DNA from: an archaeon
Lineage (GTDB): Archaea; Methanobacteriota_B; Thermococci; Methanofastidiosales; NM3
Reading direction: 5' to 3'
DNA length: 64,000 nucleotides
NCBI GenBank assembly: GCA_004212155.1
Contig: RXIG01000024.1
Coordinates: 7,853-71,852, forward strand
The notes under the pieces were generated by a model. That model saw only the letters and a list, made by a program, of their open reading frames with translations, was not told the origin of the DNA and did no database searches. The translations under genes were made by a program, and so were the position numbers. This document shows, one piece after another, positions 4,603-51,527 of the stretch. Position 1 is the stretch's first letter; each line of letters begins with the position of its first letter.

Positions 4603-4834
4603 GCACACACTTACGCGCACCTGCTTAAAAAGTTTAATCGAAAAGGGATACCAGCAGACACAATGCTGTGGGAGGTGGAAACAAATAGCCGATTGTGCCT
4701 GCTACCTCTCCCATTCGGTTTCCCTTTTTAAATTTTTCTGAAATAATGGGTGCGATACGATCATCGATTCTACCTTAGGAAATCGCACTTGCAAAACGCA
4801 AATCTTTATAATGCATCATGCACAGATAGCGTGG

Positions 4835-5275
4835 ATGAGCATCAAGTCACGATTGCGTGGTGTGGAAAAGCAACAGGTCAAACGGGAGAAGAGAAAGGCC
4901 AAGGTCGAGGAACGTGAGGAACGCAGGGACTTCCCTCCGCTCGTGCTCATGGGCATCCTCGCGGCCGGCAGCCTGATCGCCCTCATGCCCATACCGCTAT
5001 GGTTCCTTTTTTTGATCTTCCCGCTTGTCACCCGCAACATGGCTACATGGGACTTCTGGACATCGCTAAAGGTCGGAGCGATGATATCCATCGTGACGTT
5101 TATCACGAGACTCGTGTTCTATCTCAGCGAGATAGGCATCGTCGATTTGCTGATGTACTTTGGATACAGCCTTGCTATCATCACGCTGCTGCTCTATACC
5201 GGTTCGTTCCTCGTTGCATTGTTCCAGGGAAGGGGCGTAGAAAAGAAATCGACCGGAAAGAAAAAGAAGAAGTGA
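4835..5275 (+). CDS. Small membrane protein, unknown function
   Basis: Three predicted TM helices, K/E-rich N-terminus, KKKKK C-terminus. TTTATAAT at 4805-4812 is 27 nt upstream of ATG 4835, so the track start 4811 lies inside the TATA box. Confidence 0.5.
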   Translation: MSIKSRLRGVEKQQVKREKRKAKVEEREERRDFPPLVLMGILAAGSLIALMPIPLWFLFLIFPLVTRNMATWDFWTSLKVGAMISIVTFITRLVFYLSEIGIVDLLMYFGYSLAIITLLLYTGSFLVALFQGRGVEKKSTGKKKKK

Positions 5276-5887
5276 TCACTCGAGTTCGAACACGAGCTCG
5301 ATGCCGCGCTCAAGCTCCTCGACGATGATGCCGTTTGCACGCGTTTGCGGATGTGACGGCACGGCCTTGCATCCCGCGGCACCCTCAACGGAGATGTCAT
5401 ACGTCCCGATATCCTTTGCGATCTGTTCTATCTCGAGCTTGTCCATGCACAGGAGCGGGCGCACGACGTGGCGGGGGCTTGCCTTGGATATGAGGATCAT
5501 GTTGTCAAGCGTCTGCGAGGCCACCTGGCCGAGGTTCTCGCCCGTGACGATGACATCGGCGCCCTCATCATCTGCCACCTCGTTGGCGAGCTTCATCATG
5601 GCCCTCTTGCACAACACGCACACGTACGAGCGCGACTTCTCAGAGATCGATGTGATGATCTTTTGCAGGTTCGGGCCGTGCTTGAGCACGTAGAGCTTGA
5701 TGGGGCGGCCATGCAGCTCTGCCAGGTGCATGATGTGGCGCTTGGTCACCTCGAGGTTGATCGGTTCAGAGAATGGGGACGTGTCGTAGGTAAGTGCGAT
5801 GACATCGTAGCCCTGCTCAAGGGCCAGATGGCACGCCACAGGGCTGTCGATGCCGTCCGAGATGAGTGCGATCGCCTTTTTCACCAC
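5276..5887 (-). CDS. Stand-alone ThiI-type PP-loop ATP pyrophosphatase domain (no THUMP, no rhodanese)
   Basis: PP-loop LISDGIDSPVA. CVLC (CxxC) plus a later GCKAVP cysteine, as in archaeal ThiI Fe-S ligands. Only 203 aa. Lies 5 nt downstream of SepCysS. Confidence 0.7.
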   Translation of the reverse strand: MVKKAIALISDGIDSPVACHLALEQGYDVIALTYDTSPFSEPINLEVTKRHIMHLAELHGRPIKLYVLKHGPNLQKIITSISEKSRSYVCVLCKRAMMKLANEVADDEGADVIVTGENLGQVASQTLDNMILISKASPRHVVRPLLCMDKLEIEQIAKDIGTYDISVEGAAGCKAVPSHPQTRANGIIVEELERGIELVFELE

Positions 5888-5892
5888 TCCAC

Positions 5893-7035
5893 CTACATAT
5901 ACTTGTCCTTAATCTCTAAAAAGCTTTCCACAATGTAGTCGACCTGCTCATCGGTAAAGCCAAACGTCGAGAACTTGAAGTGCTTGGTACGCCCCGGCTT
6001 GATACCGACGATGCCGCGCGACTTGAGCTCCTTTGCGAGGAAGTATCCGCGTTTCTTGTGGTGTGAGGCGATCTCGTCGTAGGCGGGCGTCTCGATGGCG
6101 ATGATGTCGTGCTCCTTGGGCGACATGCCAAGGAGCGAGAAGCCACCAGCATCCAAAAGCCGCGAAACGACAGAACGGGCATGTGCGACCTCCCTTTCCC
6201 AGTGCTTGACGCGCTCTTTTACATGCGGAAACGACGAGATGAGTGCGACGACCTCCGAGCCGCGCGTCGAGCAGCCGAGGATCTCGATCGGTTTGACGGG
6301 ATACTCCTTCGAAAAGCGTATGATCCTATCACGATACTCCTCGTTCACTGCAAGGAGACCGGCGTTCCCGCCGCCGATTGCCCACGATTTGTGGGCAGAG
6401 CATGCGATGAAGTCCACACCGAGCTCACGTCCCGATACCGGCATCCTGCCTGCAGAGTATGCGGCGTTGAGGAGAACGGGGACCCCGTGGTCGTGGCATA
6501 CCGAAGCGATCGACTTCGCATCGACGACATTGCCGTAGTTGCCGTCCACATGGGTCACGACGGCAAGCACCGGAGGGCGGCCATGCTCCTTCGTGCCCCG
6601 TTCGATAGCCTCATCGAACATGGCGGGCGTGATCTCAAATGTGGGATGCCCCGACGTTTCGGTACGTATTACCGGCACGCCGTTGCGTTCGGCGGCAACA
6701 AGCGTCGAATAGTGTGCATTGCCATCGGCTACCATCCAGTCGTCCCTGGATGCAAGAGAATGTATGACCGTCTCCTTTGCCTCGCGCGCGCCGTTGGTAA
6801 GGAGCGCATTGTCCATGCCGAGGAACGCAGAGACGTCCTCGATGAACTGCCTGATGGGCGGTTTGTCCGTTGTTCTTAGCGAACCCTTGCACGCATCACA
6901 GACGGCATAGCCATCGACCCACGAGAATATCGCCTTGCGGGTGTCGGCGGGCGTTCGACCCCCCGTCTGGAGGGGGTTGATGTTAAGATAGAGTTCCTCG
7001 ACCATGCGTTCCCCGATGCCACAGACAAGGCTCAC
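5893..7035 (-). CDS. pscS: O-phosphoseryl-tRNA(Cys):Cys-tRNA synthase (SepCysS)
   Basis: LNINPLQTGG, DGYAVCDAC, THVDGNYGN, PLP-lysine context SAHKS, SFPHVKERV and KKRGYFL..LK.RGIVGIKPG all match the SepCysS pattern. GTG start at 7035; ATG 7002 is an alternative. Confidence 0.85.
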   Translation of the reverse strand: MSLVCGIGERMVEELYLNINPLQTGGRTPADTRKAIFSWVDGYAVCDACKGSLRTTDKPPIRQFIEDVSAFLGMDNALLTNGAREAKETVIHSLASRDDWMVADGNAHYSTLVAAERNGVPVIRTETSGHPTFEITPAMFDEAIERGTKEHGRPPVLAVVTHVDGNYGNVVDAKSIASVCHDHGVPVLLNAAYSAGRMPVSGRELGVDFIACSAHKSWAIGGGNAGLLAVNEEYRDRIIRFSKEYPVKPIEILGCSTRGSEVVALISSFPHVKERVKHWEREVAHARSVVSRLLDAGGFSLLGMSPKEHDIIAIETPAYDEIASHHKKRGYFLAKELKSRGIVGIKPGRTKHFKFSTFGFTDEQVDYIVESFLEIKDKYM

Positions 7036-7211
7036 AGCATCTCCTCCTCAATCGTGTCAAGGGACGTGCGGACCTTTTCAAGAAGTGAGGTGAGCTCCTC
7101 CCTGTCACGTTCGGAAAGGGTATGGAAGGGACGAGTGCGCCGCCAAATCTCCTGAATATCGATGAGCGCAAAAATCGCATTGTACGTGTTTTGCACAGAA
7201 CGTTCGCTCAT
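7032..7211 (-). CDS. 59-aa helical protein translationally coupled to SepCysS (candidate truncated SepCysE-like adaptor)
   Basis: Translated by hand: MSERSVQNTYNAIFALIDIQEIWRRTRPFHTLSERDREELTSLLEKVRTSLDTIEEEML. Stop TGA overlaps the SepCysS GTG (GTGA). AGGTGAT SD lies 3 nt upstream. TATA at 7244-7252. Below the ORF-track size cutoff. Confidence 0.55.
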   Translation of the reverse strand: MSERSVQNTYNAIFALIDIQEIWRRTRPFHTLSERDREELTSLLEKVRTSLDTIEEEML

Positions 7212-7243
7212 GGTATCACCTTGAAGTTAGCATGTATGGGGCA

Positions 7244-7252
7244 CATATAAAA
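7244..7252 (-). promoter_or_regulatory. TATA box for the small-ORF/SepCysS/ThiI-like operon
   Basis: Minus-strand TTTTATATG about 37 nt upstream of ATG 7211. Same CATATAAAA motif as upstream of orc1. Confidence 0.45.
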
Positions 7253-7388
7253 CTTTGGAGCAATATGCCATGACGCACATGATTTCTGATTATTCTGGAG
7301 GATCAAGTTGATATGATTATGTAATTTGATTGAGGTATAGGACAAAGGGAAGAAAGGAAAGCTTACAAAAGATTAACATATACAGAAG

Positions 7389-7459
7389 AGCCGGGGGGGA
7401 GATTTGAACTCCCGTGCGAGGATCTGCAGTCCACTGCCAAGCCGCTAGGCGACCCCGGC
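7389..7459 (-). tRNA. tRNA-Cys (anticodon GCA)
   Basis: Hand-folded cloverleaf. Acceptor GCCGGGG/CCCCGGC, D arm with GG, anticodon loop CTGCAGA, T arm GGGAG-TTCAAAT-CTCCC, discriminator U73. 71 nt, CCA not encoded. Confidence 0.9.
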
Positions 7460-7488
7460 ATGAAGGCATGTATCATAATTTGTGACTG

Positions 7489-7496
7489 CTTAAAAG
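7489..7496 (-). promoter_or_regulatory. TATA box of tRNA-Cys
   Basis: Minus-strand CTTTTAAG about 33 nt upstream of tRNA position 1. Confidence 0.4.
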
Positions 7497-7837: not shown

Positions 7838-8532
7838 CCGGCAAAAATGTGGGTCGAGATGAGCGAGCGTACGTCATCGATTCCCAGCGGTGGTCCGTGC
7901 CCCGGATGAAACGTCGTGCATCCGCGCACCGCAAGAGACCTGATGCTCTCGCGAAGCGCCCCCTCATCATTGGCGAAGGGGGGATAGGGCGAGAAGATGC
8001 GCATGTTAAAGAGCGTGTCGCCCACGATGCAGTCCCCTCCCTCGAGCACCACGGTCATCGAACCGTCCGTGTGGCCGGGGGTGTGAAACAGTGCACCACG
8101 AACGCCATGCGACAGGAGGTCGTAGGGCGCGTTGACCACGATGGAGGGATCGACCGGATCGAACCGGCCTCTGCTCTTCATGAGCGCATTGCCGATGCGG
8201 GAGAGGATACGTGTGATGAGCCTCGTTCCCCGCGGAAACGGCGCGAATCCCTGCCTAAGGTAGTGCGCATCGTCGTGATGAACGACCACCTTGGCGCCGA
8301 AGCGTTGCGCAACGTGTGCCAGATTCCCCACATGGTCCTCGTGGGCGTGGGTCACGACGACGAGATCTATCCTGTTGAGGCCATCAAGCGCGCGCATGAG
8401 CGCATCGCGCGACGATGCAGGCCCGGTGTCGACGAGCATGACGGTCGAGCCAGACCTCACGAGATATGCGTTCGAACGGCCAACGTTGATGCGAAGGAGT
8501 TCATCGACCATACTTCTTATTGGCATATACAT
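7834..8532 (-). CDS. MBL-fold metallo-hydrolase
   Basis: HAHEDHVGN (HxHxDH) and downstream TPGHTDGS motifs. Confidence 0.8.
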   Translation of the reverse strand: MYMPIRSMVDELLRINVGRSNAYLVRSGSTVMLVDTGPASSRDALMRALDGLNRIDLVVVTHAHEDHVGNLAHVAQRFGAKVVVHHDDAHYLRQGFAPFPRGTRLITRILSRIGNALMKSRGRFDPVDPSIVVNAPYDLLSHGVRGALFHTPGHTDGSMTVVLEGGDCIVGDTLFNMRIFSPYPPFANDEGALRESIRSLAVRGCTTFHPGHGPPLGIDDVRSLISTHIFAG

Positions 8533-8566
8533 ATATTTTAAATGTTCGAAGGAAGAAGGTTAAGAT

Positions 8567-10786
8567 ATGACGTCATTCTCCTTTTCCGGGATGCACGATG
8601 CGGACGACGCCATAAAAATACTCCTTGTTGACGACGACGAGGATCTGCTCACCATTGCGAAACACCTTCTCGAAAAAGACGAACCATGCCTGTCTATCGA
8701 CGTGGCAAAGGATGGCGAGGCTGCCTATGCATTGTTCATGAAACACGGATACGAGGCCGTCGTCTCCGACTACCAGATGCCTAAGATGGACGGGCTGGAA
8801 CTATTGCGCCGCATCCGGGAGAATGACGCGGAGATGCCGTTCATACTGTTTACCGGCAAGGGGCGGGAGGAGGTGGCGATCGAGGCGCTCAATCACGGTG
8901 CGAATCGCTACATACAAAAGAAGGGCGATCCCTCCACCCAATATGCCCTGTTAAAGGACGCCATCGTCAAGGAAGTCCGCTCCAAGCGCGCCCACGAGGC
9001 ACTGCGCGAAAGCGAGCACAAGTTCAGGACGTTTACGGAACTTGCCCCCGTTGCCATCATGATACACATGGACGAGCGATGGGTCTATGTCAATCCCGCC
9101 GCCAAGAGGCTTATCGGCCGCCCCGAGAATGACATAGTGGGTTCGAGCATTTGGGATATCGTCCATCCCGATCACCGAAGACTCATCGAGCGCCGACGAG
9201 ATGACTGGCTTTGTGGAAAACCGGAAAAGGATGAGGTCGAGCTGAAGATCATATGTGGACAGGAGATAAAATGGGCTGGTATGAAGGTGCGGCCCATCAC
9301 CTACGGAGATAAGAAGGCATTTCTTGTCGTTGCCATTGAAATCACGGAGCGTAAAAGGGCCGAAAAGGCGCTCAAGGAAAGCGAGAACAGATTCCAACGG
9401 CTGATCGATCAGGCACCCATGGGCATCGTTCGCGTCGACCTCAACGAAAACATCGTCGAGGCGAACAGAGCAATGAACGACCTGCTCGGATACGGCCCGG
9501 GTGAAATACAAAAGAAGAATCCGAGACGATTCGTCCATCCTGCGGACATGGAGATCCACCGCAAGAACGTCAGATTCCTCCTCGAGGGCAAAGAGGACAA
9601 CGTTACGTATGAACTGCGCATCGTCACCAGGAATGGAGACATCAAATGGGTCAGGGTCGTCAGCAACATCGTCGACGACGATGAGGGGCGCCCCCTCTTT
9701 CGCGTAAGCATGCTCGAGGACATCACGGCCCAAAAAGAGGCAGAAGAACGCCTTCACACCTCGCAGGTCCGCCTCAACACGGCGATGGAGAAGGGTAACA
9801 TCGCCTGGTGGGAGATGGAGCTTCCATCGGGACGCGTGAAGTTCGACGATAAAAAGGCGCGCATGCTTGGCCATGCGCCAGAACGATTCAAGACCTATAC
9901 CGACTTCATGGAGCTCGTCCATCCCGAAGATCACGAGCGCGTCATGGAGGACATGCGCAGCCACCTCGAGGGAAGGTCGGCGACATACGACAGCGAATAC
10001 AGGATCCTAACCGCCCGTGGCGACTGGACCTGGTTCGAGGACCGCGGCGGCATCACCAGACGCGATGAAGGGGGCCGCCCAACGCTTGTCACCGGCATCG
10101 TCATCGACATTAGCGAGAGAAAGGAAGCCGAGGAGGAGGTCGATTTCCTGCTCACCCTGCTGCGTCACGACCTGAAGAACAAGACCCACATCATACAAAG
10201 CTACCTCGACCTCATCAACCTGACGTCGCTTGACGACGACACTGCACAATATATCGAACGCGCAGCAAGTGTGAACAAGGTGGGCCAACAGCTCCTAGAA
10301 AAGGTCGGCAAACTCCGTGAGATCGAACAGGCGACAGAGCGGCGCCCCGTAAACATCGACCGCTTGCTCACGACCATCATCAAGCGCTACGAGGCACCTG
10401 CCAACGAGAGGGGCATAGAAATCGAACATCGTGGAAAGCCATCACGCGTCGAGGGCGGCGAGCTCCTCGAAGAGCTCTTTTCCAACCTCATCGAGAACGC
10501 CATCATCCACTCCAAAGGGTCGCTCATTCGCATCTCGATCGAGGAGCAAAACGGCGAGACGCGTGTAAGCATGGAGGACGACGGGCGAGGCATCGGTGAA
10601 AAGGATTTGGTGAACCTGTTCAACAAGGGATTCAAGGGAAGGGACTCCAAGGGGCTTGGAATCGGCACCTACCTCATCAAGAAGATCGCTGAGGCCTATG
10701 GCGGCAGGGTCCGTGCGCTCAAATCAGACCTCGGGGGAGCGCGTTTTGATGTCTACCTGAGGTCAAGCGCCAGCGCGGCGCAGTGA
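8567..10786 (+). CDS. Hybrid sensor: receiver domain + multiple PAS domains + histidine kinase
   Basis: Receiver (ILLVDDDEDLL...VVSDYQMPKMDG...K). At least three PAS repeats. H-box LLRHDLKNK. HATPase NLIENAIIHS, DDGRGI, GLGIGTYL. Confidence 0.85.
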   Translation: MTSFSFSGMHDADDAIKILLVDDDEDLLTIAKHLLEKDEPCLSIDVAKDGEAAYALFMKHGYEAVVSDYQMPKMDGLELLRRIRENDAEMPFILFTGKGREEVAIEALNHGANRYIQKKGDPSTQYALLKDAIVKEVRSKRAHEALRESEHKFRTFTELAPVAIMIHMDERWVYVNPAAKRLIGRPENDIVGSSIWDIVHPDHRRLIERRRDDWLCGKPEKDEVELKIICGQEIKWAGMKVRPITYGDKKAFLVVAIEITERKRAEKALKESENRFQRLIDQAPMGIVRVDLNENIVEANRAMNDLLGYGPGEIQKKNPRRFVHPADMEIHRKNVRFLLEGKEDNVTYELRIVTRNGDIKWVRVVSNIVDDDEGRPLFRVSMLEDITAQKEAEERLHTSQVRLNTAMEKGNIAWWEMELPSGRVKFDDKKARMLGHAPERFKTYTDFMELVHPEDHERVMEDMRSHLEGRSATYDSEYRILTARGDWTWFEDRGGITRRDEGGRPTLVTGIVIDISERKEAEEEVDFLLTLLRHDLKNKTHIIQSYLDLINLTSLDDDTAQYIERAASVNKVGQQLLEKVGKLREIEQATERRPVNIDRLLTTIIKRYEAPANERGIEIEHRGKPSRVEGGELLEELFSNLIENAIIHSKGSLIRISIEEQNGETRVSMEDDGRGIGEKDLVNLFNKGFKGRDSKGLGIGTYLIKKIAEAYGGRVRALKSDLGGARFDVYLRSSASAAQ

Positions 10787-13196: not shown

Positions 13197-13472
13197 TCAC
13201 CCGCCTGCCACGGGAGGAAAGAGCGCTACCTCGTCGTCGGGACCGATGGGCGTGCCCCGACCCGAAAGGAACGTGATGTCGCGTCCGTTCACGAATATCC
13301 TCACATACGGGCGAAGCTCCCCTTCTTCCAGGATCGCCTCGTACACGTCGCGATGCGTGTAGAAGAGGCGGTCGATGAGGGCGCCGATGCTTTCCGCATC
13401 GATGCGCGCCTCCTTTTCCCTCGCACGCCCCCTCAGATCGGCGTAGAATCGCACCAGCGCCATATGCCCCAC
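13197..13472 (-). CDS. MoaD/ThiS-fold ubiquitin-like protein (SAMP-like) ending in Gly-Gly
   Basis: 91 aa, C-terminus ALFPPVAGG-stop, beta-grasp pattern VNGRDI. Confidence 0.7.
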   Translation of the reverse strand: MGHMALVRFYADLRGRAREKEARIDAESIGALIDRLFYTHRDVYEAILEEGELRPYVRIFVNGRDITFLSGRGTPIGPDDEVALFPPVAGG

Positions 13473-19008: not shown

Positions 19009-19470
19009 TTACGTGAGGCGCGTCCTGCGCGCGCCGGTGTGGCGGATGATCTCTTCGGGTGCGATCTTTATGAGGCCGCTATCGCTTCCCCCGCCTGCCC
19101 ACACGCACGGGAGTTCGAGCACCGCCTCGTCGATCAGAAAGCATGCATCGAAGCCGATGGGGGGCACGCCCCCTGCAGGAAATCCGGTGTGGGAAAGCAC
19201 CTCGCATGCCCGCGCGATGCGGGGAACGGGGGCCTCAAGCGCCTCGCCGATGCGCCGCGGCAAGACGCGGTCGCACCCGCGAACGATGGCCACGACGATG
19301 CCATCATCAGCCATGAAGCAGATCGATTTGACGAACTCCTCGGGCGCTGCGCCCGTGGCCTTGCAGGCCGCCTGGACGGAATGACACGAATCGTCGTAAG
19401 TAAAAAGAGAGCAGTCCACGCCGTTCCTGCGTATGTAGTCCTGTAGTTTCTTCGTGTATTCATTCTCCAT
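19009..19470 (-). CDS. ybaK: YbaK/ProX-type aminoacyl-tRNA deacylase
   Basis: KSICFM...IVVAIVRG and GFPAGGVPPIGF motifs of the YbaK/EbsC editing domain. Leaderless, with TATA 26 nt upstream. Confidence 0.75.
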   Translation of the reverse strand: MENEYTKKLQDYIRRNGVDCSLFTYDDSCHSVQAACKATGAAPEEFVKSICFMADDGIVVAIVRGCDRVLPRRIGEALEAPVPRIARACEVLSHTGFPAGGVPPIGFDACFLIDEAVLELPCVWAGGGSDSGLIKIAPEEIIRHTGARRTRLT

Positions 19471-19608: not shown

Positions 19609-19684
19609 GCGGCCGTAGTGTAGTGGCCCAGCACATAAGCCTGCCACGCTTGTAACCCGGGTTCAAATCCCGGCGGCCGCACCA
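19609..19684 (+). tRNA. tRNA-Gly (anticodon GCC), CCA encoded
   Basis: Acceptor GCGGCCG/CGGCCGC, anticodon loop CTGCCAC, T arm CCGGG-TTCAAAT-CCCGG, A73, CCA. 76 nt. Confidence 0.9.
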
Positions 19685-35182: not shown

Positions 35183-35390
35183 CGCCCCTCCCCAAGGAAG
35201 ATTCCGTGTGCGATTCGCTTGATGGGAAAATCTTTTCAAAACTATTTTAATTTTCTAATTTTTTTTCATTCTTTCATAACGATAAAATAAATTTTTGAAC
35301 GATAAAAAAAAGAATAATATACTCCTAAAATCACGAAATAAAAAGATTTATATGTGTTATTTGCACATCACTTGTAAGGGGGGTGGTAGC

Positions 35391-36611
35391 GTGTCAACGA
35401 CCACGTTCGAGATCAATCCGGCGACCCGTATAGAGGGTCACGCGAAGATCGTCCTTGAAACGAATGAAGAGGATATCATAGAAAACGCTTACTTCATGTC
35501 CACCAGCATGGTGCGTGGATTCGAATATCTCGTGAGAGGGAGGCACTATAACTTTGCAACATTGGTGACGCAGCGCATCTGCGGCATCTGCCCCATTCCG
35601 CATGGGCTTGCGTCAGCAGAGGCGATCGAGGATGCCATGGGCGTCACGCCTCCTCGAAACGCCATGTTGCTTCGCGAACTTCTCCTGCTGGCAAACAAGA
35701 TACAAAGCCACGCTCTGCACCAATACCTCATCCTTCCCGACCTTCCGGCCGACGAAGCGGTGCGTGCGGAGATGACAGAAAGGATACAGGAGATACGAAG
35801 GCTCAGCCAGAAGATCGTCGATACGGTCGGAGGCGAGGCGATCCATCCCTCGAACATCGAGGTCGGCGGCATGCGGGCGCCGATCACCGCCTATGCGGCA
35901 GCCATGCTCTACCGGGTGCTTCGCAAGTGCGAACGGCTCGTGAAGATACAACGAGACGACATGATGGCGCTCCTCGAAAAGATGTCTGAGGAGTCAGAGC
36001 ATCCCATGGGGCGGTATCGAGAGGCGATGCTTGCCACGGACATGACGTATGGCAACAGGGAACGATTCGACCTGTCAGCAATCACCGAGATCACCCCGTA
36101 CCGATTCTACCAGGAGCATGAACCCGGAAAGGAGACCCACATCATGATCCCACTCTACTACGGCGAGACCGTCGAGGTGGGCCCGCGTGCACGATTCTCC
36201 CACTTCAAGGGATTTCGTGGCGAGACGCCCATCGACATCAACATCGCCCGGGCGCGTGAGATGATGATCATGGTCTATCGTGCCGTGGAGATACTCGATG
36301 ACCTGTCTCCCACTGCGCCGACAAGAGCAGACGTCGTCGTGAGGAAGGGCAGCGGCATCGGCGTCGTCGAGGCACCGCGCGGAACGAACGCACACATGGT
36401 CTCGGTCGATGACAGCGGCACTATCACCGCCTACAACATGATCGTCCCCACGACCTGGAACATGCCCACCGTTGAGAGGGCGCTTCGCGGCAATCACCAT
36501 TCGCTTGCCGAGTTCATCGTCAGGTCCTACGACCCGTGCGTCGAATGCGCCACGCACTGCATCGAGGTGCGCGACCTTGATGGCAACGTCACGGAAAGGA
36601 GGATGATGTAG
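35391..36611 (+). CDS. frhA: [NiFe] hydrogenase large subunit, F420-reducing type (FrhA-like)
   Basis: RIEGHAKI, RICGICPIPH and C-terminal DPCVECATH plus a cleavable extension. About 406 aa. GTG 35391 after GGGGGGTGGT. Gene order A-D-G-B. Confidence 0.8.
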   Translation: MSTTTFEINPATRIEGHAKIVLETNEEDIIENAYFMSTSMVRGFEYLVRGRHYNFATLVTQRICGICPIPHGLASAEAIEDAMGVTPPRNAMLLRELLLLANKIQSHALHQYLILPDLPADEAVRAEMTERIQEIRRLSQKIVDTVGGEAIHPSNIEVGGMRAPITAYAAAMLYRVLRKCERLVKIQRDDMMALLEKMSEESEHPMGRYREAMLATDMTYGNRERFDLSAITEITPYRFYQEHEPGKETHIMIPLYYGETVEVGPRARFSHFKGFRGETPIDINIARAREMMIMVYRAVEILDDLSPTAPTRADVVVRKGSGIGVVEAPRGTNAHMVSVDDSGTITAYNMIVPTTWNMPTVERALRGNHHSLAEFIVRSYDPCVECATHCIEVRDLDGNVTERRMM

Positions 36612-37070
36612 ATGGCAGCAACGGTCATCGTGGGCTGCGGCAATCTGCTACGGGGCGACGACGGATTCGGCTGCCTCGTGGCGCAGCGGCTCGCCTCCAT
36701 GCTCTCTCCAAGGCGCGACATCGAGATCGTCGATGCGGGAAGTGCCGCCGGGCAGTATATCAATCTTCTCTCAAGCAAGGACGACCCTCCATCGCTCATC
36801 GTGATCGACGCAGGCATGTTCGGTGCCCGGCGCGGCGAGCTCCGCCTCTTCACGCCAGATGAACTTGGTGCCGATGCGTGCGGACACTCGCTACACGGCT
36901 GGCCCCTTCAGACAGAGATTGCTCGCTATCCCGGCGCCGCAAAGGCCCTTCTCTGCCAGGTTGACGACGATGGAACGAAGGACATGAGCCTGGATGTGAG
37001 CTCCGATGTGCGCGACGCCGTGGCGCAAGCATGCACGATGGTGTGCCAGTTGACGGAGGTGCGCGCATGA
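36612..37070 (+). CDS. frhD: Hydrogenase maturation endopeptidase (FrhD-like)
   Basis: VIVGCGNLLRGDDGFG and IVDAG motifs. Abuts the frhA stop. Confidence 0.8.
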   Translation: MAATVIVGCGNLLRGDDGFGCLVAQRLASMLSPRRDIEIVDAGSAAGQYINLLSSKDDPPSLIVIDAGMFGARRGELRLFTPDELGADACGHSLHGWPLQTEIARYPGAAKALLCQVDDDGTKDMSLDVSSDVRDAVAQACTMVCQLTEVRA

Positions 37071-38620
37071 GCAAGCCGGTCGTCGTATGGGTGGAACTTG
37101 CCGCCTGCAGCGGATGCAGCGTCTCGTTCTTGGACAATCACGACTCGGTCGGCCGCATACTCGAAGCCATCGACCTCAGGTACGACACGCTCATTATCGA
37201 CGGACGCGACATACCCGACCATATCGACCTTGCCATCGTCGAGGGCGGGGTCGCGATCACCGACAAGCAAATAGAGCTCGTGCGCTGCATCAGGAGGCGC
37301 TCGGACGTCGTCGTGGCCATGGGCGCGTGTGCCGAGACAGGGGGCGTGCTCAACTACGCCGAGGGCAATCAGATGCCGATGCCCGAGCTTGATGCCTATC
37401 TTCCCCTGCACGACCTGATCGAGGTCGACTACGTGCTGCCCGGATGCCCACCGGCGTCGGAGGCCATCGCCAAGTTCTTCGAGGCGTATCTCGACAAGGA
37501 CTGGGCATACCTTGCACCATACAACACCATCAAGGGGAAGAGCGAGGGGAAGATACGCGACATCGTGAAGATGGGGCTTTGCGTCTCCTGCGGACTGTGC
37601 GGCGCGACGTGCCCGACAAACGCTATACGATTCGTCGAGGGCAAGCCGGTGATACGCGACGAGCGCTGCATCATCTGCGGCGAATGCTACTTCCAGTGCC
37701 CCCGTTCGTTCCTGCGGCTCGAAGAGCGCGACCCCGGCACGCCAAACGGGTCGGTGGGCCCCTATCTCGAGGCATACCAGATGCGCACCACCAGCTCAAC
37801 GCTTCGCCGCGCCGCACAGTCGGGCGGCATCGTCACCACACTGTTCACCTATGCGCTTGACAACAATCTCATCGACGGCGTCATCGCCGCCAAGAAGAGC
37901 GAGGAGAGCGTATGGATGGGCGATCCCTACATCGCGACGACGCCCGAGGAGCTCCTTGCCACCACGGGCACGAAGTATTCGGTCTGCCCGACACTCAACT
38001 ACCTGCGCGATGCGGTGACGACCCACGGCCTGGGGAAGCTTGGCATCGTCGGACTGCCATGCCAGCACGAGGCGCTCAAGAAGCTCGATGACTATCCGCT
38101 CGGACTGCGCCACATATCCGATAAGATCGCGCTCAAGGTCGGCCTCTTCTGCACATCGAACTTCAGGTACAATGCCATGACAAAGATGGTTGAGGAGGTG
38201 GGCGGCGTTCGCCCGGAGGACATACGCAAGATCGACATCGGCGCGGGAAGCTTCAACATCAGCGCCCTCACGGGCGAACTCATCAAGATCCCCCTTGACG
38301 TAGTGCACAACTACGAGCAGGAGTCGTGCAAGATCTGCCCCGACTTCACATCGGAGTATGCCGACATCTCGGTGGGCTCAATCGGCGCCGATGAGCACTG
38401 GTCGACCGTCTTCGTGCGCACGCAGCGGGGCAAGGAGATCCTCGACGGCGCGGTCGAGAACGGCTACATCGATTCGCGTGAGCTGCCGGAAAACGCGCTC
38501 AAGCTCGTCGGAAAGATCGCGGCATCGAAGCGAAAGAAGGGTGCACGATACCTTGCAACGAGGAAGGACTACGGCCTGCTCATCCCGTTCAGGTATGTCG
38601 AGACCGATAGTTCAACATGA
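37067..38620 (+). CDS. Fused hydrogenase small subunit (FrhG-like, with 2x[4Fe-4S] ferredoxin segment) and FrhB-family F420/FAD subunit
   Basis: N-terminus VWVELAACSGCSVSFLD. CVSCGLCGATCP and CIICGECYFQCP. Then FrhB-type QSGGIVTTL..IDGVI, TKYSVCP, VGLPCQ, GLFCTSNF, CKICPDFTSEYADISVGS. Single uninterrupted 517-codon ORF. ATGA overlap with frhD. Confidence 0.75.
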   Translation: MSKPVVVWVELAACSGCSVSFLDNHDSVGRILEAIDLRYDTLIIDGRDIPDHIDLAIVEGGVAITDKQIELVRCIRRRSDVVVAMGACAETGGVLNYAEGNQMPMPELDAYLPLHDLIEVDYVLPGCPPASEAIAKFFEAYLDKDWAYLAPYNTIKGKSEGKIRDIVKMGLCVSCGLCGATCPTNAIRFVEGKPVIRDERCIICGECYFQCPRSFLRLEERDPGTPNGSVGPYLEAYQMRTTSSTLRRAAQSGGIVTTLFTYALDNNLIDGVIAAKKSEESVWMGDPYIATTPEELLATTGTKYSVCPTLNYLRDAVTTHGLGKLGIVGLPCQHEALKKLDDYPLGLRHISDKIALKVGLFCTSNFRYNAMTKMVEEVGGVRPEDIRKIDIGAGSFNISALTGELIKIPLDVVHNYEQESCKICPDFTSEYADISVGSIGADEHWSTVFVRTQRGKEILDGAVENGYIDSRELPENALKLVGKIAASKRKKGARYLATRKDYGLLIPFRYVETDSST

Positions 38621-41280: not shown

Positions 41281-42417
41281 ATGGACCTCATCCTCGATAT
41301 TGCCATACTGCTGCTGGCAGCAAAGGTCGGCGGAGAACTGACCGAGTATGCTGGATATCCTTCCATCATAGGCGAGCTCGCCGGCGGCATCATCGTTGGC
41401 ACGTCGGTGCTCGGCCTCATAGGTGATACGAGCGCGCTTGAGCGCTTTGCTGACATCGGCATCCTGCTGCTCATGTTCCTGGCAGGCGCAGAGACGAATC
41501 TGCAGGAGCTCACGAAGTCGGCAGGCAGCTCAGTTGCCGTGGCGATATCAGGAGTCGTGTTCCCGTTCATGCTCGGGTATCTTGCTGCCGTCGCGTTCGG
41601 ATACGGGGCATCGGAGGGCATGTTCCTCGGCGCGGCCCTGACGGCGACTTCGGTGAGCATCACTGTGCGCGCCCTGTTTGACATCGAAAAGCTCAATACA
41701 AGTAAGGGCATGACCATCCTTGGTGCAGCGATCATCGACGACGTCATCGGCGTCATCATCTTCACACTTGTAGTCGGACTGGCTGTGCAGGGTGAGCTCT
41801 CGGCGCTCCGCATCATCGAGGTGATAGGGGTAATCATTGCGTTCTTCCTGCTCTCGCACTTCGTGGTGCGCAGAGCCATGCGCCGCCTCTTCAAATATTC
41901 TCGCATGCTCAGGACCGAGGAGGGTACGGAAACGTTCGTCATCGTCTTCGTGCTCCTCTTCGCCCTCGTCGCAGAGGAGGCCTACATCGCAGGCATCACG
42001 GGCAGCTTCCTGGCAGGCATCATGCTAGCGCAGACGCATGACCGAAACACGATCATAGAAAAGACGAAGACGGTCGGCTATGCGTTTTTCATCCCTCTCT
42101 TCTTCGCCTTCGTGGGGAGCCGCGTCGACATCTGGCAAATTCTTGATGTCGGGGCGATAAGTGTGGTGGTGATCGTCTTTGCCATCGTAGGCAAGATGGG
42201 TGGCAGTGCCATCGCATGCAAGGCGATCGGCATGAAGATCAGAGACGGACTCGAGATAGGCATCGGCATGACCCCCCGCATGGAAGTGGCCATCGTCATC
42301 GCGAACGCGGCACTGACAGAGGGCGTCTTCGCGGTGCCACTCTACACGTCAGTCGTGATGATGAGCTTTGCGACGACGCTCATCACGCCGCCGCTCCTCA
42401 AGAAGTTCTTTACGTGA
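41281..42417 (+). CDS. Cation:proton antiporter (CPA2/Kef-NapA type)
   Basis: About 11 TM. GGELTEYAGYPSIIGELAGGII and DDVIGVI motifs. Confidence 0.8.
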   Translation: MDLILDIAILLLAAKVGGELTEYAGYPSIIGELAGGIIVGTSVLGLIGDTSALERFADIGILLLMFLAGAETNLQELTKSAGSSVAVAISGVVFPFMLGYLAAVAFGYGASEGMFLGAALTATSVSITVRALFDIEKLNTSKGMTILGAAIIDDVIGVIIFTLVVGLAVQGELSALRIIEVIGVIIAFFLLSHFVVRRAMRRLFKYSRMLRTEEGTETFVIVFVLLFALVAEEAYIAGITGSFLAGIMLAQTHDRNTIIEKTKTVGYAFFIPLFFAFVGSRVDIWQILDVGAISVVVIVFAIVGKMGGSAIACKAIGMKIRDGLEIGIGMTPRMEVAIVIANAALTEGVFAVPLYTSVVMMSFATTLITPPLLKKFFT

Positions 42418-44110
42418 ACTCCTTCGGGGTGAGCGTGAGCGTGCGAATGTTCTGCACAGGTGTGCCCACGGTGATATCGCATCCCGAGGCAAGAATGAGT
42501 CCCTTGCCGCCCATGTCCTCGATGCATCGGCGCGCCTCGGTGCGTACCTTGTCGGGGGACGACATGTAGAGCGTCTCGAGTGCCGATACGTTGCCGATGA
42601 TAGCGAAGCGGTCGCCAAGCATCCGTCTCGCGAACGAGAGGTCGACATGCGAGTCGATGCTCACGGCATCGGTGTTGAGGCCGCGGAACAGGTCAAGCCT
42701 GTCGCTGATGTTTCCGCAGATGTGAAGCGCCGTCTTGTCGTCGCTTCGGTTGAAGTGGCCAAAGACGTCGTTGATGAACGGAAGCGAGAACTCCTCGAAG
42801 ACCTCGGCGGATATGAGGTCGCCCGATGCGACGGGGTCGCAGAAGAGATATGCCTCGATGCCCGCCTCCTGCATGAGACGGGTGAATGAAAGCGTGAGCT
42901 CGGTGCAGTACTTGAGCAGTTTGAACGCAAACGGCCTGTTCACGAAGAGGTCCATGAGGAGATTCTGGGTGCCGCGAAGCTCGGCGGCCAGGGTAAACGG
43001 CATCGCGAGCGTAGCATACGTGAAGCGAGATCCATCATTGAGCTCGTTTATCGCAGTTGCCGCCTCGATGGCCGAACTGATGCGCTCATGCGACTGCAGC
43101 TCGGGCATCTCCAGCGAATCGATGTCCTCCGCGCGCTTGAGCAAAGGCTCGATGGTCACCGGATTACCCTTCGCCTCAATACGCACGTGCCCCCCTGCCG
43201 CTTCGATGGGGGCGAGCCAGTCCCATGCGCACTCGTAGGCGTCAAAGCCGCAGTTACGGACCTCCTTGTACTGGGTCTTTGCGGCTAGTTCTGGATGTGC
43301 GATCGACTGACCCACCGTCATGCCCGCGTGGTGCAGCGCCCAGTAGCCCTGAAAGGGGGGGGCGGTGGACACCATGTCAGGCACATCGCCACGAAGCGTC
43401 ATCATGACGCGCTGGTGGGGCGAGACCTTGCGCTTCTTTCCCTTCAGTGTGGCAGCTCGCTGCTTGACGAGCTCGTGCGAGAGTTCCACGGTCTTGACCG
43501 CGTCGTCGGCGTAGCCGTCTGCGCCGATGGTGCGGGCGAACTCCTCGGTGACGGGGGCCCCGCCCACCATGACCTTGACGTCGTCGCGGCGCTCGAGAAA
43601 GAGGTTGACAACATCGATCATGTTCTCCATGCTCGTCGTCATGAGCGCCGAGACGCCGACGATGTCCGCATCGACCTCGATGGCCTTTTCAAGGAACGTC
43701 TCGGCAGGCGTGTCGACGCCGAGATCATAGACCTTGAACCCACCCAGCTCAAGCAGCATCTTGACCATGTTCTTTCCGATATCGTGGAAATCGCCCGTGG
43801 TCACGCCGAGCACGACGGTGCCCTCGTTGTGGGAGTTGTTGTTCTGCGAAAGATAAGAATGAAGGATATCAATGGCCGCGTTTGCGGCGCGAGAAGAGAG
43901 CAGGACCTCGGGGATGAAGATCTTTCGCTGTTCGAACAGCTCGCCGAGCACCTGCATTGTGTCATGACAGGCAAACGAGAGGGCCTTGCGCACGTCGACG
44001 TCATGCTCGATGACCTGTCGGGCGGCATCTACCGCACCGTCAACATCGCCGTGGATGATGCTCCTGCACAGAGCACCCAGGATCTCGTCGTCCCGTTTCA
44101 TCATGGTCAC
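42410..44110 (-). CDS. Fusion protein: corrinoid-binding module + URO-D-family (MtaA-like) methyltransferase domain
   Basis: N-terminal B12 cap helix domain and GDFHDIGKN...SALMTT...GGAP. C-terminal about 350 aa with PPFQGYWAL, LHICGN and ASGCDI. Architecture as in MtsD/F/H-type fusions. Confidence 0.8.
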   Translation of the reverse strand: MTMMKRDDEILGALCRSIIHGDVDGAVDAARQVIEHDVDVRKALSFACHDTMQVLGELFEQRKIFIPEVLLSSRAANAAIDILHSYLSQNNNSHNEGTVVLGVTTGDFHDIGKNMVKMLLELGGFKVYDLGVDTPAETFLEKAIEVDADIVGVSALMTTSMENMIDVVNLFLERRDDVKVMVGGAPVTEEFARTIGADGYADDAVKTVELSHELVKQRAATLKGKKRKVSPHQRVMMTLRGDVPDMVSTAPPFQGYWALHHAGMTVGQSIAHPELAAKTQYKEVRNCGFDAYECAWDWLAPIEAAGGHVRIEAKGNPVTIEPLLKRAEDIDSLEMPELQSHERISSAIEAATAINELNDGSRFTYATLAMPFTLAAELRGTQNLLMDLFVNRPFAFKLLKYCTELTLSFTRLMQEAGIEAYLFCDPVASGDLISAEVFEEFSLPFINDVFGHFNRSDDKTALHICGNISDRLDLFRGLNTDAVSIDSHVDLSFARRMLGDRFAIIGNVSALETLYMSSPDKVRTEARRCIEDMGGKGLILASGCDITVGTPVQNIRTLTLTPKEFT

Positions 44111-44158
44111 AGCTTCTTGTTTATACCAACTCCTTAAAAAGGTAATTCAGGATAGAGC

Positions 44159-45172
44159 TCAAAGTCCGTGCGCATACGACGTGTAGGCGCGTATGTTGTC
44201 AAGCGGCGTCTTGGGCGATATGCCGCAGCCCGGGGCGAGGATGTCCGCGCCCTTCTCGATGCATGAGCGCGCCTCGTCGACCACGCGCCGAGCGTCGCCG
44301 AAGAGGAGCGTGTCGATGGGATTGATGTTTCCCACGAGCGCAGCGGAGCGGACCTTCTCGCGCGCAACAGCCATGTCAACGAGGTGGTCAATCGATATGC
44401 CCTTGGCACCGATGCGCTGCATATCATCAAGTATCTCAGTGGTGTCCCCGCAGATGTGGAGCACCACCGGCACGTCGAGCGAATCGATGACGGCATGCAG
44501 CTGTGGTCCTGCAAGCGAGGCGAACATCTCGGGTCCGATGAGCTCGGTTGTCGCCGAAGGATCGATGAGCGTGATGACATCTGCCCCGTTGGCCACGAGG
44601 TGGCGGGCGTATGCGACGCACACGTCGGTGGTGAACGCGAGCACGCGTTCGAGGAAGTCGTAATCATCGAACGAGTCGATGAGGAGCGTCTCGATGCCGC
44701 GTATCTGCCCGGCCAGTGTGAACGGCCCGACCACTCCGCCGATGACGGGAAGCCCATGCCGGTCCGCGCGTTCCGAGAGCAAGCCAAGCGCCGTTGCCAC
44801 CACGGGCATGCGCCCTGTCTTGGAGGGATCGGGAACCGAGAGCGAGTCGAGCGCATCCTTGTCAGCGAGCACGGGGCGTTCCACCGAAGGCTGCGACGTG
44901 TCTGCGCCGCTGTGGATCGAGCATCCCAGCGCCTCCGCCTCCACGGTGAGGCAAAACGGAACGCGCACGCTCTCGATGTCGGCACACTTCCATGCTGCGT
45001 AGGCGAGGTCCGCCATCTTCTTCGCATCGTAGTGCGCATCGGGCCAGCGAGCACCGCTTCGCTCCATCATCTCGAGCGTCGCCGTCTGGAGCGGACATGC
45101 GCACGATGGGCGGTCTGCCGGTTCGCCGTCGAGTATGGCAAGCAGCCGTTCGCGGGAGGAGAGCTCGGGCAT
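44159..45172 (-). CDS. Methylcobamide:CoM methyltransferase-like (MtaA/MtbA family, URO-D fold)
   Basis: SSRERLLAILDGEPADRP, ARWPDAHYDAKKMADLA, Zn-ligand context LHICGDT and APGCGI. ATG 45172 lies 4 nt after the upstream stop. Confidence 0.75.
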   Translation of the reverse strand: MPELSSRERLLAILDGEPADRPSCACPLQTATLEMMERSGARWPDAHYDAKKMADLAYAAWKCADIESVRVPFCLTVEAEALGCSIHSGADTSQPSVERPVLADKDALDSLSVPDPSKTGRMPVVATALGLLSERADRHGLPVIGGVVGPFTLAGQIRGIETLLIDSFDDYDFLERVLAFTTDVCVAYARHLVANGADVITLIDPSATTELIGPEMFASLAGPQLHAVIDSLDVPVVLHICGDTTEILDDMQRIGAKGISIDHLVDMAVAREKVRSAALVGNINPIDTLLFGDARRVVDEARSCIEKGADILAPGCGISPKTPLDNIRAYTSYAHGL

Positions 45173-45176
45173 GGTA

Positions 45177-46205
45177 TCACTTCCGCGCGACGACCGTCTT
45201 GAGCGCCTCGACGTTATCCATCGGACTTCCCGGTGCGATATCGCATCCAGCACCCAGCACGAACGCCTTGCCGTCGGTCTTTTGTATGCACGCCTGCGCC
45301 TCGCGCACGACCTGTTCGGCCGTCCCGTTAAAGAGCGTCTCTGCGGGATTCACGTTGCCAAGCAGCGTGGGCGAGTCTCCAAGCGTCTCCTTCGCATAGG
45401 CGAGGTCGACGAGGAAGTCGAGCGAGAAGACGTCAATGTCGAGCTCGCCGATGGTATCGAGCCTGTCGGACGTGTTGCCGCAGATGTGAAGGAGCACGTA
45501 GGCGTCGGCATCGCGAATGGCCTTGATGGGTGCCTTGAGATAGTGTTTCGAGAACGTCTCGAAGTCCTCTTTTGATATAAGGTCCGCCGAAGCGGTGGGA
45601 TCGCAAAGAATGACGCCGTCAACACCCCAGCTCGTGAGATATTCGCTGTAGCGCACGACGACGTCCTCTGCAAACGAGAGCATGTCGTGGACGAAGTCAG
45701 GCTCGTCGTACATGTCAAGCATGAGATTCTCGACGCCGCGAAGCTCGCCTACGAGCGTGAACGGCGATACGAGCGTCGTGTAAAGGAACTTGTCGCTTCC
45801 CAGCTTGTTCCTGATGATGCTTGTCGTGTGCATTGCGCTCTGAAGGCGGTAGTCCTTCTCAGGATCGGGGACCTCGAGTGAGTCGAGAACTGAGGGTGAG
45901 GTAACGACATGAGTTGCCGTGCTTGGGTTCCCGACATCCGGCATGTCCACCGTGCAGCCCACAGCCTCCACAGGGGCGAGCCAGTCCCACATCGTCTCGA
46001 AGCCGTCAAAGGCGCAGCGCTCCACCGCTTTGAGCTGGGCCGAAGCGGCAAGCTGCGGCTTGTCGATCGACGTCCTGACGGGGACGCCGGCCTGCTGCAG
46101 CGCCCAGTAGCCCTGAAAGGGGGGCCCGATGGGCACCCTGTCGACGGGCTCGCCGTTGATGGCAGCCACGAATCTGTCGCGAGATGAGTGCGACACCATT
46201 GTCAT
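45177..46205 (-). CDS. URO-D-family methyltransferase, paralogue of the fusion C-domain (candidate substrate:corrinoid MT1)
   Basis: PPFQGYWAL, WDWLAPVEA, LHICGN and GAGCDI. About 50% identical by eye to residues ~230-566 of the 42410-44110 product. Confidence 0.7.
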   Translation of the reverse strand: MTMVSHSSRDRFVAAINGEPVDRVPIGPPFQGYWALQQAGVPVRTSIDKPQLAASAQLKAVERCAFDGFETMWDWLAPVEAVGCTVDMPDVGNPSTATHVVTSPSVLDSLEVPDPEKDYRLQSAMHTTSIIRNKLGSDKFLYTTLVSPFTLVGELRGVENLMLDMYDEPDFVHDMLSFAEDVVVRYSEYLTSWGVDGVILCDPTASADLISKEDFETFSKHYLKAPIKAIRDADAYVLLHICGNTSDRLDTIGELDIDVFSLDFLVDLAYAKETLGDSPTLLGNVNPAETLFNGTAEQVVREAQACIQKTDGKAFVLGAGCDIAPGSPMDNVEALKTVVARK

Positions 46206-48729: not shown

Positions 48730-48748
48730 CTGTAAAAAAAAGAAGGGC

Positions 48749-51484: not shown

Positions 51485-51527
51485 GATAGTTCCACCTCCC
51501 ACATGGGGAAAAAGAAAAAAAGAGGGG

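Follow-up and report, generated by a model that had tools for sequence, protein, structure and literature searches.

Why should a gene for a tRNA-thiolating type of enzyme lie directly behind the gene for SepCysS, which converts phosphoseryl-tRNA(Cys) (Sep-tRNA(Cys)) to Cys-tRNA(Cys)? The question is raised by a locus in a 64,000-nucleotide stretch of the archaeal contig RXIG01000024.1 (hereafter the window), where a tRNA-Cys gene, a 59-codon open reading frame (ORF), SepCysS and a 203-amino-acid (aa) PP-loop protein, here termed ThiI-PP, follow one another on one strand. A first-pass annotation had viewed the four as a functional module containing a putative adaptor, which might point to the sulfur relay of tRNA-dependent cysteine synthesis. 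The 59-aa ORF is SepCysSn, a small split gene that precedes SepCysS and is homologous to the N-domain of SepCysE, as defined by Mukai et al. 2017 (PMC5424206). The tRNA-Cys-SepCysSn-SepCysS core is thus already known and the window is another example of it; what is new here is the recurrent ThiI-family neighbour of SepCysSn-type SepCysS, as well as the THUMP-less, catalytic-domain form that this neighbour takes in the window's clade. We favour the view, with a probability of roughly 0.55, that the locus couples a module that converts Sep-tRNA(Cys) to Cys-tRNA(Cys) with a gene for tRNA thiolation, and that the linkage serves co-expression and not a sulfur relay.

All four parts were confirmed on the minus strand (window 5276-7496), essentially as first annotated, except that ARAGORN places the tRNA-Cys gene at 7388-7459 rather than 7389-7459. 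In the direction of transcription, the features are as follows.

7489-7496, minus strand: TATA-like element CTTTTAAG, putative tRNA-Cys promoter (sequence and conservation)
7388-7459, minus strand: tRNA-Cys, anticodon GCA (ARAGORN, sequence, conservation in relatives)
7244-7252, minus strand: TATA-like element TTTTATATG, putative operon promoter (sequence and conservation)
7216-7220, minus strand: Shine-Dalgarno-like GGTGA ahead of the SepCysSn start (sequence)
7032-7211, minus strand: SepCysSn, 59 aa, ATG start (homologues, profile, AlphaFold2 model, gene position)
5893-7035, minus strand: SepCysS, 380 aa from GTG (TIGR02539, structure 2E7I, invariant residues)
5276-5887, minus strand: ThiI-PP, a THUMP-less ThiI/TtuI catalytic domain, 203 aa (PF02568, structure 4KR6, AlphaFold2 model)

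The three protein genes are tightly packed. The SepCysSn stop codon TGA overlaps the GTG start of SepCysS by 4 nucleotides (nt; CTGTGA), with an alternative in-frame ATG start 30 nt further down that gene callers use in some relatives, and a 5-nt gap separates the SepCysS stop from the ThiI-PP start.

ThiI-family genes beside SepCysSn-type SepCysS

The extent of the linkage was assessed by a reference-genome scan with the single SepCysS protein, which returned 8 loci, 6 of them useful, and by querying metagenomes with a SepCysS alignment, which returned 80 loci at 44-72% identity. The metagenome loci were scored by hidden Markov models (HMMs) for SepCysSn, ThiI-PP and NFLD-THUMP and by ARAGORN, and dereplication at 85% SepCysS identity left 27 clusters with SepCysSn and 24 without it. 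Of the 27 SepCysSn-type clusters, 12 have a ThiI-family gene in their flanks, versus none of the 24 SepCysSn-less ones, and tRNA-Cys is similarly distributed (10/27 versus 0/24). The 12 ThiI-positive clusters constitute six independent locus types: seven clusters belong to the window's clade, while the other five are independent and rearranged.

Within the clade, the SepCysSn-SepCysS-ThiI-PP trio is present in every relative examined (L001-L006, L014-L016, L018-L020), with gaps of at most 18 nt or overlaps between the genes, and tRNA-Cys stands directly 5' of the trio in most of them. The arrangement is conserved among relatives, a check that the first-pass annotation had called for. By itself, the close-clade trio proves little, because an entire neighbourhood of ~15 kb (TraB, DUF711, MJ1316, PAS, radical SAM, PhoU, Pst) is also syntenic there. 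We consequently discounted close-clade synteny as proof of function and based the argument upon rearranged, divergent loci instead.

Five such locus types were encountered. In L022/25-28/35, a full-length ThiI of 367 aa (ThiI_fer-THUMP-ThiI by Pfam) starts 1 nt after the SepCysS stop; the L025-type SepCysS is, by inspection, the sequence that Mukai et al. list as 'Arc I group archaeon ADurb1013_Bin02101'. The order in L041/42/44 is Thi4, a 129-aa ORF with no Pfam match, tRNA-Cys, SepCysSn, SepCysS and a full-length ThiI of 400 aa, and in L039, which falls in the same cluster, the full-length ThiI is 5.5 kb away. In L032, SepCysS is followed by an inserted putative toxin-antitoxin pair (1772-2409), a PP-loop-only (PP-only) ThiI and ThiM; judged by eye, the inserted pair is AbrB/MazE-like and PIN-like. 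L050/51 has a 275-aa ThiI_fer+THUMP protein directly 3' of SepCysS (L050 9089-9916, plus strand), in which the C-terminal ~110 aa lack a match to any PP-loop family, and a 186-aa PP-only ThiI 1.5 kb upstream of SepCysS on the opposite strand (L050 5886-6446, minus strand), an apparent split ThiI. Lastly, L021 encodes a full-length ThiI without CXXC ~3 kb upstream of SepCysS, with ThiS, ThiF and a PALP enzyme between them.

According to a ThiI tree and pairwise identities, at least three different ThiI lineages occupy the slot that immediately follows SepCysS, the tree being a neighbour-joining one with unresolved deep nodes. Since the linked ThiI genes derive from different ThiI lineages, a ThiI-type gene has been kept or re-recruited beside SepCysSn-type SepCysS several times, which argues for a real functional or regulatory connection between the two. 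Of the proposed functional module, then, the conserved unit stands, both in the clade and in five further rearranged locus types, while its tRNA-Cys, SepCysSn and SepCysS linkage had already been published: Mukai et al. describe tRNA-Cys, SepCysSn, SepCysS and 'a few sulfur metabolism genes' in such an arrangement (PMC5424206). The term 'ThiI' is absent from the text of PMC5424206 and PMC8762117 and from the Mukai 2017 supplementary text, none of which describes a THUMP-less form, and a full-text literature search for SepCysS and ThiI together yielded a single paper, which was unrelated.

SepCysSn, SepCysS and a THUMP-less ThiI

The 59-aa ORF, previously a putative adaptor, is SepCysSn, with sequence profile, predicted fold and gene position all in agreement. 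It is more than a chance ORF, because nine protein homologues exist (66-98% identity) and recognisable homologues are located directly 5' of SepCysS in 27 dereplicated locus clusters. The distant homologues at this position (L007-L010, L018-L054, L060) come from a 'Nitrospira' metagenome-assembled genome (MAG), a bacterial MAG, two Methanomicrobiales MAGs and dozens of metagenome contigs. As a single sequence, the ORF has only a weak top match in the PDB, to Methanocaldococcus jannaschii MJ1481 (SepCysE; E=0.65). A profile of 11 SepCysS-linked ORFs matches MJ1481/SepCysE residues 49-98 at E=6e-4, the next and unrelated match having a value of 0.14. The AlphaFold2 model consists of two helices with a predicted local distance difference test score (pLDDT) of 93.7, and when compared by Foldseek with ~350,000 PDB chains, its top five matches are all SepCysE chains from SepCysS-SepCysE crystal complexes, with a template modelling (TM) score of 0.75 and an rmsd (root-mean-square deviation) of 1.2-1.3 Å over 49 columns. 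Judging from the M. jannaschii SepCysS-SepCysE complexes 3WKR and 3WKS, this helical hairpin would bind the SepCysS dimer. Another 59-aa ORF, found 5' of the Methanomassiliicoccus-type PP-only gene in L098, was also considered as a SepCysSn and rejected as not SepCysSn-like.

Two known systems are especially close to this part of the locus. The 'clade VII' SepCysSn-SepCysS loci (Mukai 2017, PMC5424206; PMC8762117) likewise have a small SepCysE-N-domain gene before SepCysS, and by the description in PMC5424206 the window's SepCysS would belong to clade VII. The tRNA-Thr-ED gene reported by Mukai et al. was not seen at the window locus, whereas relatives have a YbaK-type editing gene nearby instead. 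M. jannaschii SepCysE (MJ1481), a component of the SepRS-SepCysE-SepCysS transsulfursome (3WKR, 3WKS, 5X6B), is like SepCysSn encoded with SepCysS. However, SepCysE has 216 aa, and the 59-aa SepCysSn lacks both its SepRS-binding N-terminal helix and its C-terminal tRNA-binding domain. No longer SepCysE-like ORF was found in the locus, only the segment equivalent to SepCysE 49-98, so the locus falls short of a transsulfursome; a stable ternary complex bridged to SepRS is not expected (PMC8762117).

The product of the middle gene belongs beyond doubt to the SepCysS family. The protein passes the equivalog cutoff of TIGR02539 (477.4 bits versus 365.25) and scores 477.8 bits against NF006810 (cutoff 301), and it matches the Archaeoglobus fulgidus structure 2E7I at E=4e-106 and M. 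jannaschii SepCysS structures at similar values (~1e-106). H215-K216 (the HK motif at the pyridoxal phosphate (PLP) site), C46, C49 and C255 are invariant across 10 diverse SepCysS sequences (alignment A3) and align with their counterparts in the A. fulgidus and M. jannaschii structures.

As for ThiI-PP, its sequence and modelled fold indicate that it is a complete catalytic domain of a tRNA 4-thiouridine (s4U) synthetase and nothing else. It matches Pfam PF02568 (ThiI) at 9e-55 and Thermotoga maritima ThiI residues 176-368 with 35% identity (4KR6, E=9e-32). The match to TIGR00342 covers only positions 173-368 of that model (187.6 bits, below the 264.5 cutoff). The best NCBIfam match is to PRK08349 (NF006222; E=5e-56), a 'hypothetical protein' family of ~198 aa that likewise comprises short stand-alone ThiI-like PP-loop proteins and is itself uncharacterised; at 189.7 bits, below the curated cutoff of 251, ThiI-PP is not a member. 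No exact database record of the window's ThiI-PP sequence was found. The AlphaFold2 model (pLDDT 94.5) superposes upon the 4KR6 catalytic domain with a TM score of 0.88 and an rmsd of 1.9 Å. T. maritima ThiI has the RNA-holding NFLD/THUMP region and no CXXC; ThiI-PP is the reverse on both counts.

The protein begins at its PP-loop, which reads SDGIDS. Across 23 family members, S10, G12, D14 and S15 of this loop (S-x-G-I-D-S), the GENLGQVASQT block, the CXXC (C90-V-L-C93) and C173 are invariant, C173 being equivalent to the catalytic Cys344 of bacterial enzymes. The idea that SDGIDS signifies lost ATP binding was rejected, as family members have G, S or D at that position; S is also found there in full-length SepCysS-linked ThiI enzymes. 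ThiI-PP shares its PP-loop domain, its CXXC+C and its lack of a rhodanese domain with archaeal TtuI/ThiI (Methanococcus maripaludis MMP1354, Pyrococcus furiosus; PMC9825150), for which reason sulfide-type chemistry is to be expected of it. In the characterised TtuI of M. maripaludis and P. furiosus, the CXXC+C holds a [4Fe-4S] cluster, and the reaction takes its sulfur from sulfide and depends on ATP (PMC9825150, PMC5372739). ThiI-PP differs from TtuI in its lack of NFLD and THUMP, in having SDGIDS instead of SGGxDS and in being co-operonic with SepCysS. We do not file it as a TtuI family member, because the NFLD-THUMP half, a defining feature, is missing, but ThiI-PP very probably works like the TtuI catalytic domain.

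Full-length genes at the same position in relatives could suggest that the window's gene is a decaying, 5'-truncated thiI remnant devoid of function. This we consider highly improbable. The gene is intact, and ThiI-PP is predicted to be an active enzyme and not a remnant, because its catalytic residues are invariant in the 23 members and its sequence remains 59-98% identical across the clade. Its fold is predicted with confidence, and the 5 nt between the SepCysS stop and the ThiI-PP start leave no THUMP remnant. ThiI-PP is also nearer to the PP-only family, with 46-51% identity to unlinked stand-alone proteins versus 36-41% to linked full-length ThiI. A recent N-terminal truncation of a Methanofastidiosum-type full-length gene was similarly not supported, as identity to that PP domain is 36% versus up to 51% to unlinked stand-alone proteins.

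ThiI-PP is one of many such proteins. Stand-alone PP-only proteins of 195-220 aa gave 705 matches at E<=1e-10 and occur in Woesearchaeota, Nanoarchaeota, Thermoplasmata and Methanomassiliicoccus, among others. ThiI_fer+THUMP (NFLD-THUMP) proteins without a PP-loop gave 665 matches of ~250-290 aa in Nanoarchaeota, Woesearchaeota and other archaea, so that the two families are found in the same kinds of taxa. No SepCysS is located near the PP-only genes of L017, L098 and L099, and a tie to SepCysS is not a general feature of the stand-alone family. The THUMP-half genes L100 10001-10795 and L102 10001-10786 have conserved neighbours of their own, namely DUF2238, a TrmB-type regulator and class II ribonucleotide reductase.

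Proposed co-expression and its alternatives

As we envisage it, SepCysS, a PLP enzyme placed in its family by sequence, would exchange the phosphate of tRNA-bound phosphoserine for sulfur, and ThiI-PP would thiolate a tRNA uridine (s4U8-type) using ATP and sulfide. Because ThiI-PP is without the NFLD-THUMP half, tRNA binding would presumably be supplied in trans, either by a separate NFLD-THUMP protein or by another tRNA-bound partner. The linkage would then ensure co-expression of two Fe-S/sulfide-dependent, sulfur-inserting tRNA enzymes within neighbourhoods rich in sulfur biosynthesis genes.

Such neighbourhoods are evident in many of the loci. Thi4 is found beside SepCysSn-SepCysS in L024 (6479-7282) and L041 (1664-2491), ThiM/ThiE in L029 (2747-4201), L032 (3022-3816) and L037 (6168-7606), and ThiS/ThiF near SepCysS in L021. 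ThrC-like PALP and Cys/Met-PLP (CGS) enzymes, which possibly belong to methanogen-type homocysteine synthesis, are encoded upstream of SepCysS in L008 (7015-9608), L043 (5040-7602) and L054, with Pfam confirmation in L043. In the window, a ThiS/MoaD-family sulfur-carrier-like protein (13197-13472, minus strand; PF02597, 4e-11) lies ~6 kb from the locus and adjoins a TraB-family gene, a pair that is also near the locus in L001, L005 and L016. The clustering is in keeping with a shared regulation of sulfide- and Fe-S-dependent enzymes, and Mukai et al. probably had such genes in mind when they wrote of 'a few sulfur metabolism genes'. Judged by eye, an MnmA-like (tRNA 2-thiouridine synthase) protein also follows SepCysSn-SepCysS in the 'Nitrospira' MAG (L007 2856-3923), as does a QueH-like protein in a bacterial-labelled MAG (L008 11136-11693, equal to L054 9136-9693).

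From these surroundings it is conceivable that ThiI-PP no longer acts upon RNA, that it adenylates and thiolates a small molecule or a protein C-terminus, for instance in the synthesis of thiamine or another cofactor, and that it merely shares a sulfur gene cluster with SepCysS. Thi4, ThiM and ThiE do flank SepCysSn-SepCysS in five loci (L024, L029, L032, L037, L041), the PP-only gene of L032 is immediately followed by ThiM, ThiS-like genes occur within ~6 kb in the window and in relatives, and PP-only proteins elsewhere adjoin no tRNA or THUMP gene. However, archaeal thiazole synthesis uses Thi4, and the catalytic domain is 35% identical to that of the RNA-bound T. maritima s4U synthetase, with a TM score of 0.88. 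Thiamine synthesis, moreover, needs only the rhodanese domain of ThiI (PMC9825150), which is absent from ThiI-PP, and the THUMP-half family together with L050/51 suggests a split RNA enzyme. A departure from RNA thus seems to us unlikely.

The first-pass annotation had suggested a more intimate role, that of a sulfur relay, in which ThiI-PP would activate or deliver sulfur for SepCysS. Its [4Fe-4S] cluster might, for example, capture sulfide and hand it to the active-site cysteines of SepCysS, which would define the physiological relay in this lineage. In keeping with this, the operonic coupling is tight and is maintained in the clade, ThiI genes recur beside SepCysSn-type SepCysS across rearrangements and ThiI lineages, the RNA-binding half would be dispensable if ThiI-PP need not find tRNA itself, and intermediate sulfur carriers in archaeal thiolation are a listed open question (PMC5372739). 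However, the strictly conserved PP-loop implies that adenylation has been retained, which Sep-to-Cys conversion does not need, as the phosphate is already a leaving group (PMC5424206). Sister lineages hold a complete THUMP-containing s4U synthetase in the same slot, and none of the 24 SepCysSn-less clusters, a large and well-sampled one included, has a ThiI neighbour, so ThiI is not a general requirement of SepCysS. Furthermore, SepCysS works in vitro with sulfide alone (Mukai 2017 supplement, PMC5424206), and the recurrence of thiamine, ThiS/ThiF and homocysteine-type PLP genes means that the linkage may reflect a sulfur-biosynthesis cluster and not a dedicated relay. We therefore regard a relay as less likely than co-expression and, on its own terms, as rather improbable.

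The same contiguity of tRNA-Cys, SepCysSn, SepCysS and ThiI-PP could instead signify that ThiI-PP docks upon the SepCysS-SepCysSn-tRNA(Cys) complex, which would replace THUMP as the RNA platform, and thiolates U8 of tRNA-Cys specifically during conversion. The tRNA-Cys does have U8, no THUMP gene is nearby, different ThiI lineages have been recruited to the same slot, and archaeal TtuI accepts an M. jannaschii tRNA-Cys transcript in vitro, as in earlier assays of MmTtuI mutants (PMC9825150). This proposal is nonetheless purely inferential; the full-length THUMP enzymes of sister loci need no platform, and the PP-only family is mostly unlinked to SepCysS. We judge it more doubtful than the relay. 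Even with both possibilities combined, namely that ThiI-PP is a physical partner of SepCysS-SepCysSn-tRNA(Cys) and either uses the complex as a platform for tRNA-Cys thiolation or feeds sulfide to SepCysS, such a partnership seems to us unlikely, although if true, the SepCysS-ThiI linkage would mark an unrecognised sulfur-handling unit of tRNA-dependent cysteine synthesis.

Several observations weigh against co-expression of SepCysS with a tRNA-thiolating ThiI-PP and temper the confidence we place in it. HMM searches of the 64-kb window and of the close-clade loci detected no NFLD/THUMP sequence, and four loci examined for their stand-alone THUMP-half genes have neither a PP-only ThiI nor a SepCysS nearby. 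The idea of a split enzyme is suggested by the shared taxa of the two families and by one locus type (L050/51). He et al. 2022 (PMC9825150) ascribe NFLD and THUMP domains to every TtuI enzyme, and no characterised THUMP-less CXXC+C member of ThiI was found in the literature searched. Seven of the 12 positive clusters come from one clade, and Fisher p-values consequently overstate the independence of the counts. Finally, that several ThiI lineages fill the slot suggests a selection for linkage stronger than loose co-regulation, which leaves room for a physical or substrate-level link. The first-pass annotation had itself named an ordinary s4U synthetase as the finding that would speak against its relay. 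The gene of the sister lineages, a complete NFLD-THUMP-PP-loop enzyme, comes near to that.

Putative promoters, host lineage and significance

Both promoters are putative, being read from sequence motifs and their conservation. CTTTTAAG is preceded by a purine-rich GAAAAG that resembles a B recognition element and lies within the block GAAAAGCTTTTAAG, which, with the variants GAAAACCTTATAAG and AACTTTATAA, is found ~30 nt 5' of tRNA-Cys in 11/11 aligned tRNA-Cys-bearing loci. TTTTATATG is situated 34-41 nt upstream of the SepCysSn ATG; in relatives with a tRNA-ORF spacer of ~45 nt, an element of the TTTTATAT type occurs equally far from the ATG and precedes a GGTGA, and this GGTGA is kept at the same place before SepCysSn in L004, L005, L006, L014, L016 and L019. 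tRNA-Cys would accordingly have its own promoter, with the second promoter directly downstream driving a SepCysSn-SepCysS-ThiI-PP operon. The DNA runs that carry the locus are from oil-field, crude-oil, subsurface and sediment metagenomes, and two metatranscriptome runs (of four from studies whose DNA runs hold the locus) contained no reads of the locus except a 47-nt match from an unrelated contig.

The spacer between tRNA-Cys and SepCysSn (7212-7387) measures 176 nt in the window and in the 95%-identical relative L006 versus ~45 nt in other clade members, and neither an ORF nor a recognised element is present in the extra ~130 nt. The same two genes are separated in L001 by an insertion (8251-9635) that comprises a PIN-domain gene and a 324-aa ORF. 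At the other end of the locus, a 154-aa ORF (4811-5275, plus strand) with no Pfam match and apparent hydrophobic stretches converges with ThiI-PP and ends 1 nt away; an ORF of 134-154 aa occupies the equivalent position in all close-clade loci.

The YbaK-type aminoacyl-tRNA editing protein mentioned above (PF04073, 153-154 aa) is encoded in the window 11.5 kb from the locus, at 19009-19470 (minus strand), where it adjoins tRNA-Gly (19609-19684). In four relatives (L004 1873-2337, L005 5268-5732, L014 4837-5301, L016 8041-8505), the gene is upstream of tRNA-Cys-SepCysSn-SepCysS, at distances from ~70 nt (L016) to 3.3 kb (L014). It may be a counterpart of the tRNA-Thr-ED gene whose linkage to clade VII SepCysS was reported by Mukai et al. 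and might, for example, clear mis-acylated tRNA-Cys.

The nearest relatives of the locus are in the Methanomicrobia archaeon SpSt-1146 MAG (SepCysS 95% identity) and in MAGs labelled 'Candidatus Methanofastidiosa/Methanofastidiosia archaeon'. The window, with a G+C content of 56.9%, is consistent in its predicted gene content with a methyl-reducing, Methanofastidiosa-like methanogen. Its energy-gene regions (42410-45253, minus strand; 35295-38620, plus strand; 46834-51637, minus strand) include a B12-binding+URO-D fusion and a second URO-D methyltransferase (corrinoid-URO-D type), as well as an NiFe hydrogenase large subunit (Mvh/Frh-type), an FrhB/Oxidored_q6 fusion, an aldehyde:ferredoxin oxidoreductase and a CCG-domain (HdrD-like) protein. 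Neither SepRS nor CysRS was matched among the window ORFs long enough for either (10 large ORFs and a 416-aa ORF). The Arc I group/'Ca. Methanofastidiosa' is among the SepRS-carrying archaea and contributes SepRS and SepCysS sequences to the data set of PMC5424206; the host would, by this class-level literature, be expected to have SepRS. Its tRNA-Cys(GCA) carries U8, G37 and discriminator U73, as read from the gene and conserved in relatives, and GCA, G37 (as m1G37) and U73 are the identity elements for SepRS and CysRS (PMC8762117).

Although nothing here overturns current understanding, the findings may have implications for both enzyme families. As the window's version shows, the archaeal [4Fe-4S] s4U synthetase has a catalytic domain that is also widespread on its own, and NFLD-THUMP proteins that lack a PP-loop are just as widespread. 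This contradicts the statement that all TtuI carry NFLD and THUMP, and it points to a split enzyme or else to a new substrate. For SepCysS, the gene most often found as an immediate neighbour of the SepCysSn-type enzyme belongs to the ThiI family, across several divergent archaeal lineages. The linkage is thus a concrete candidate for a tie between tRNA thiolation and tRNA-dependent cysteine synthesis, two processes that both draw upon sulfide in methanogens.

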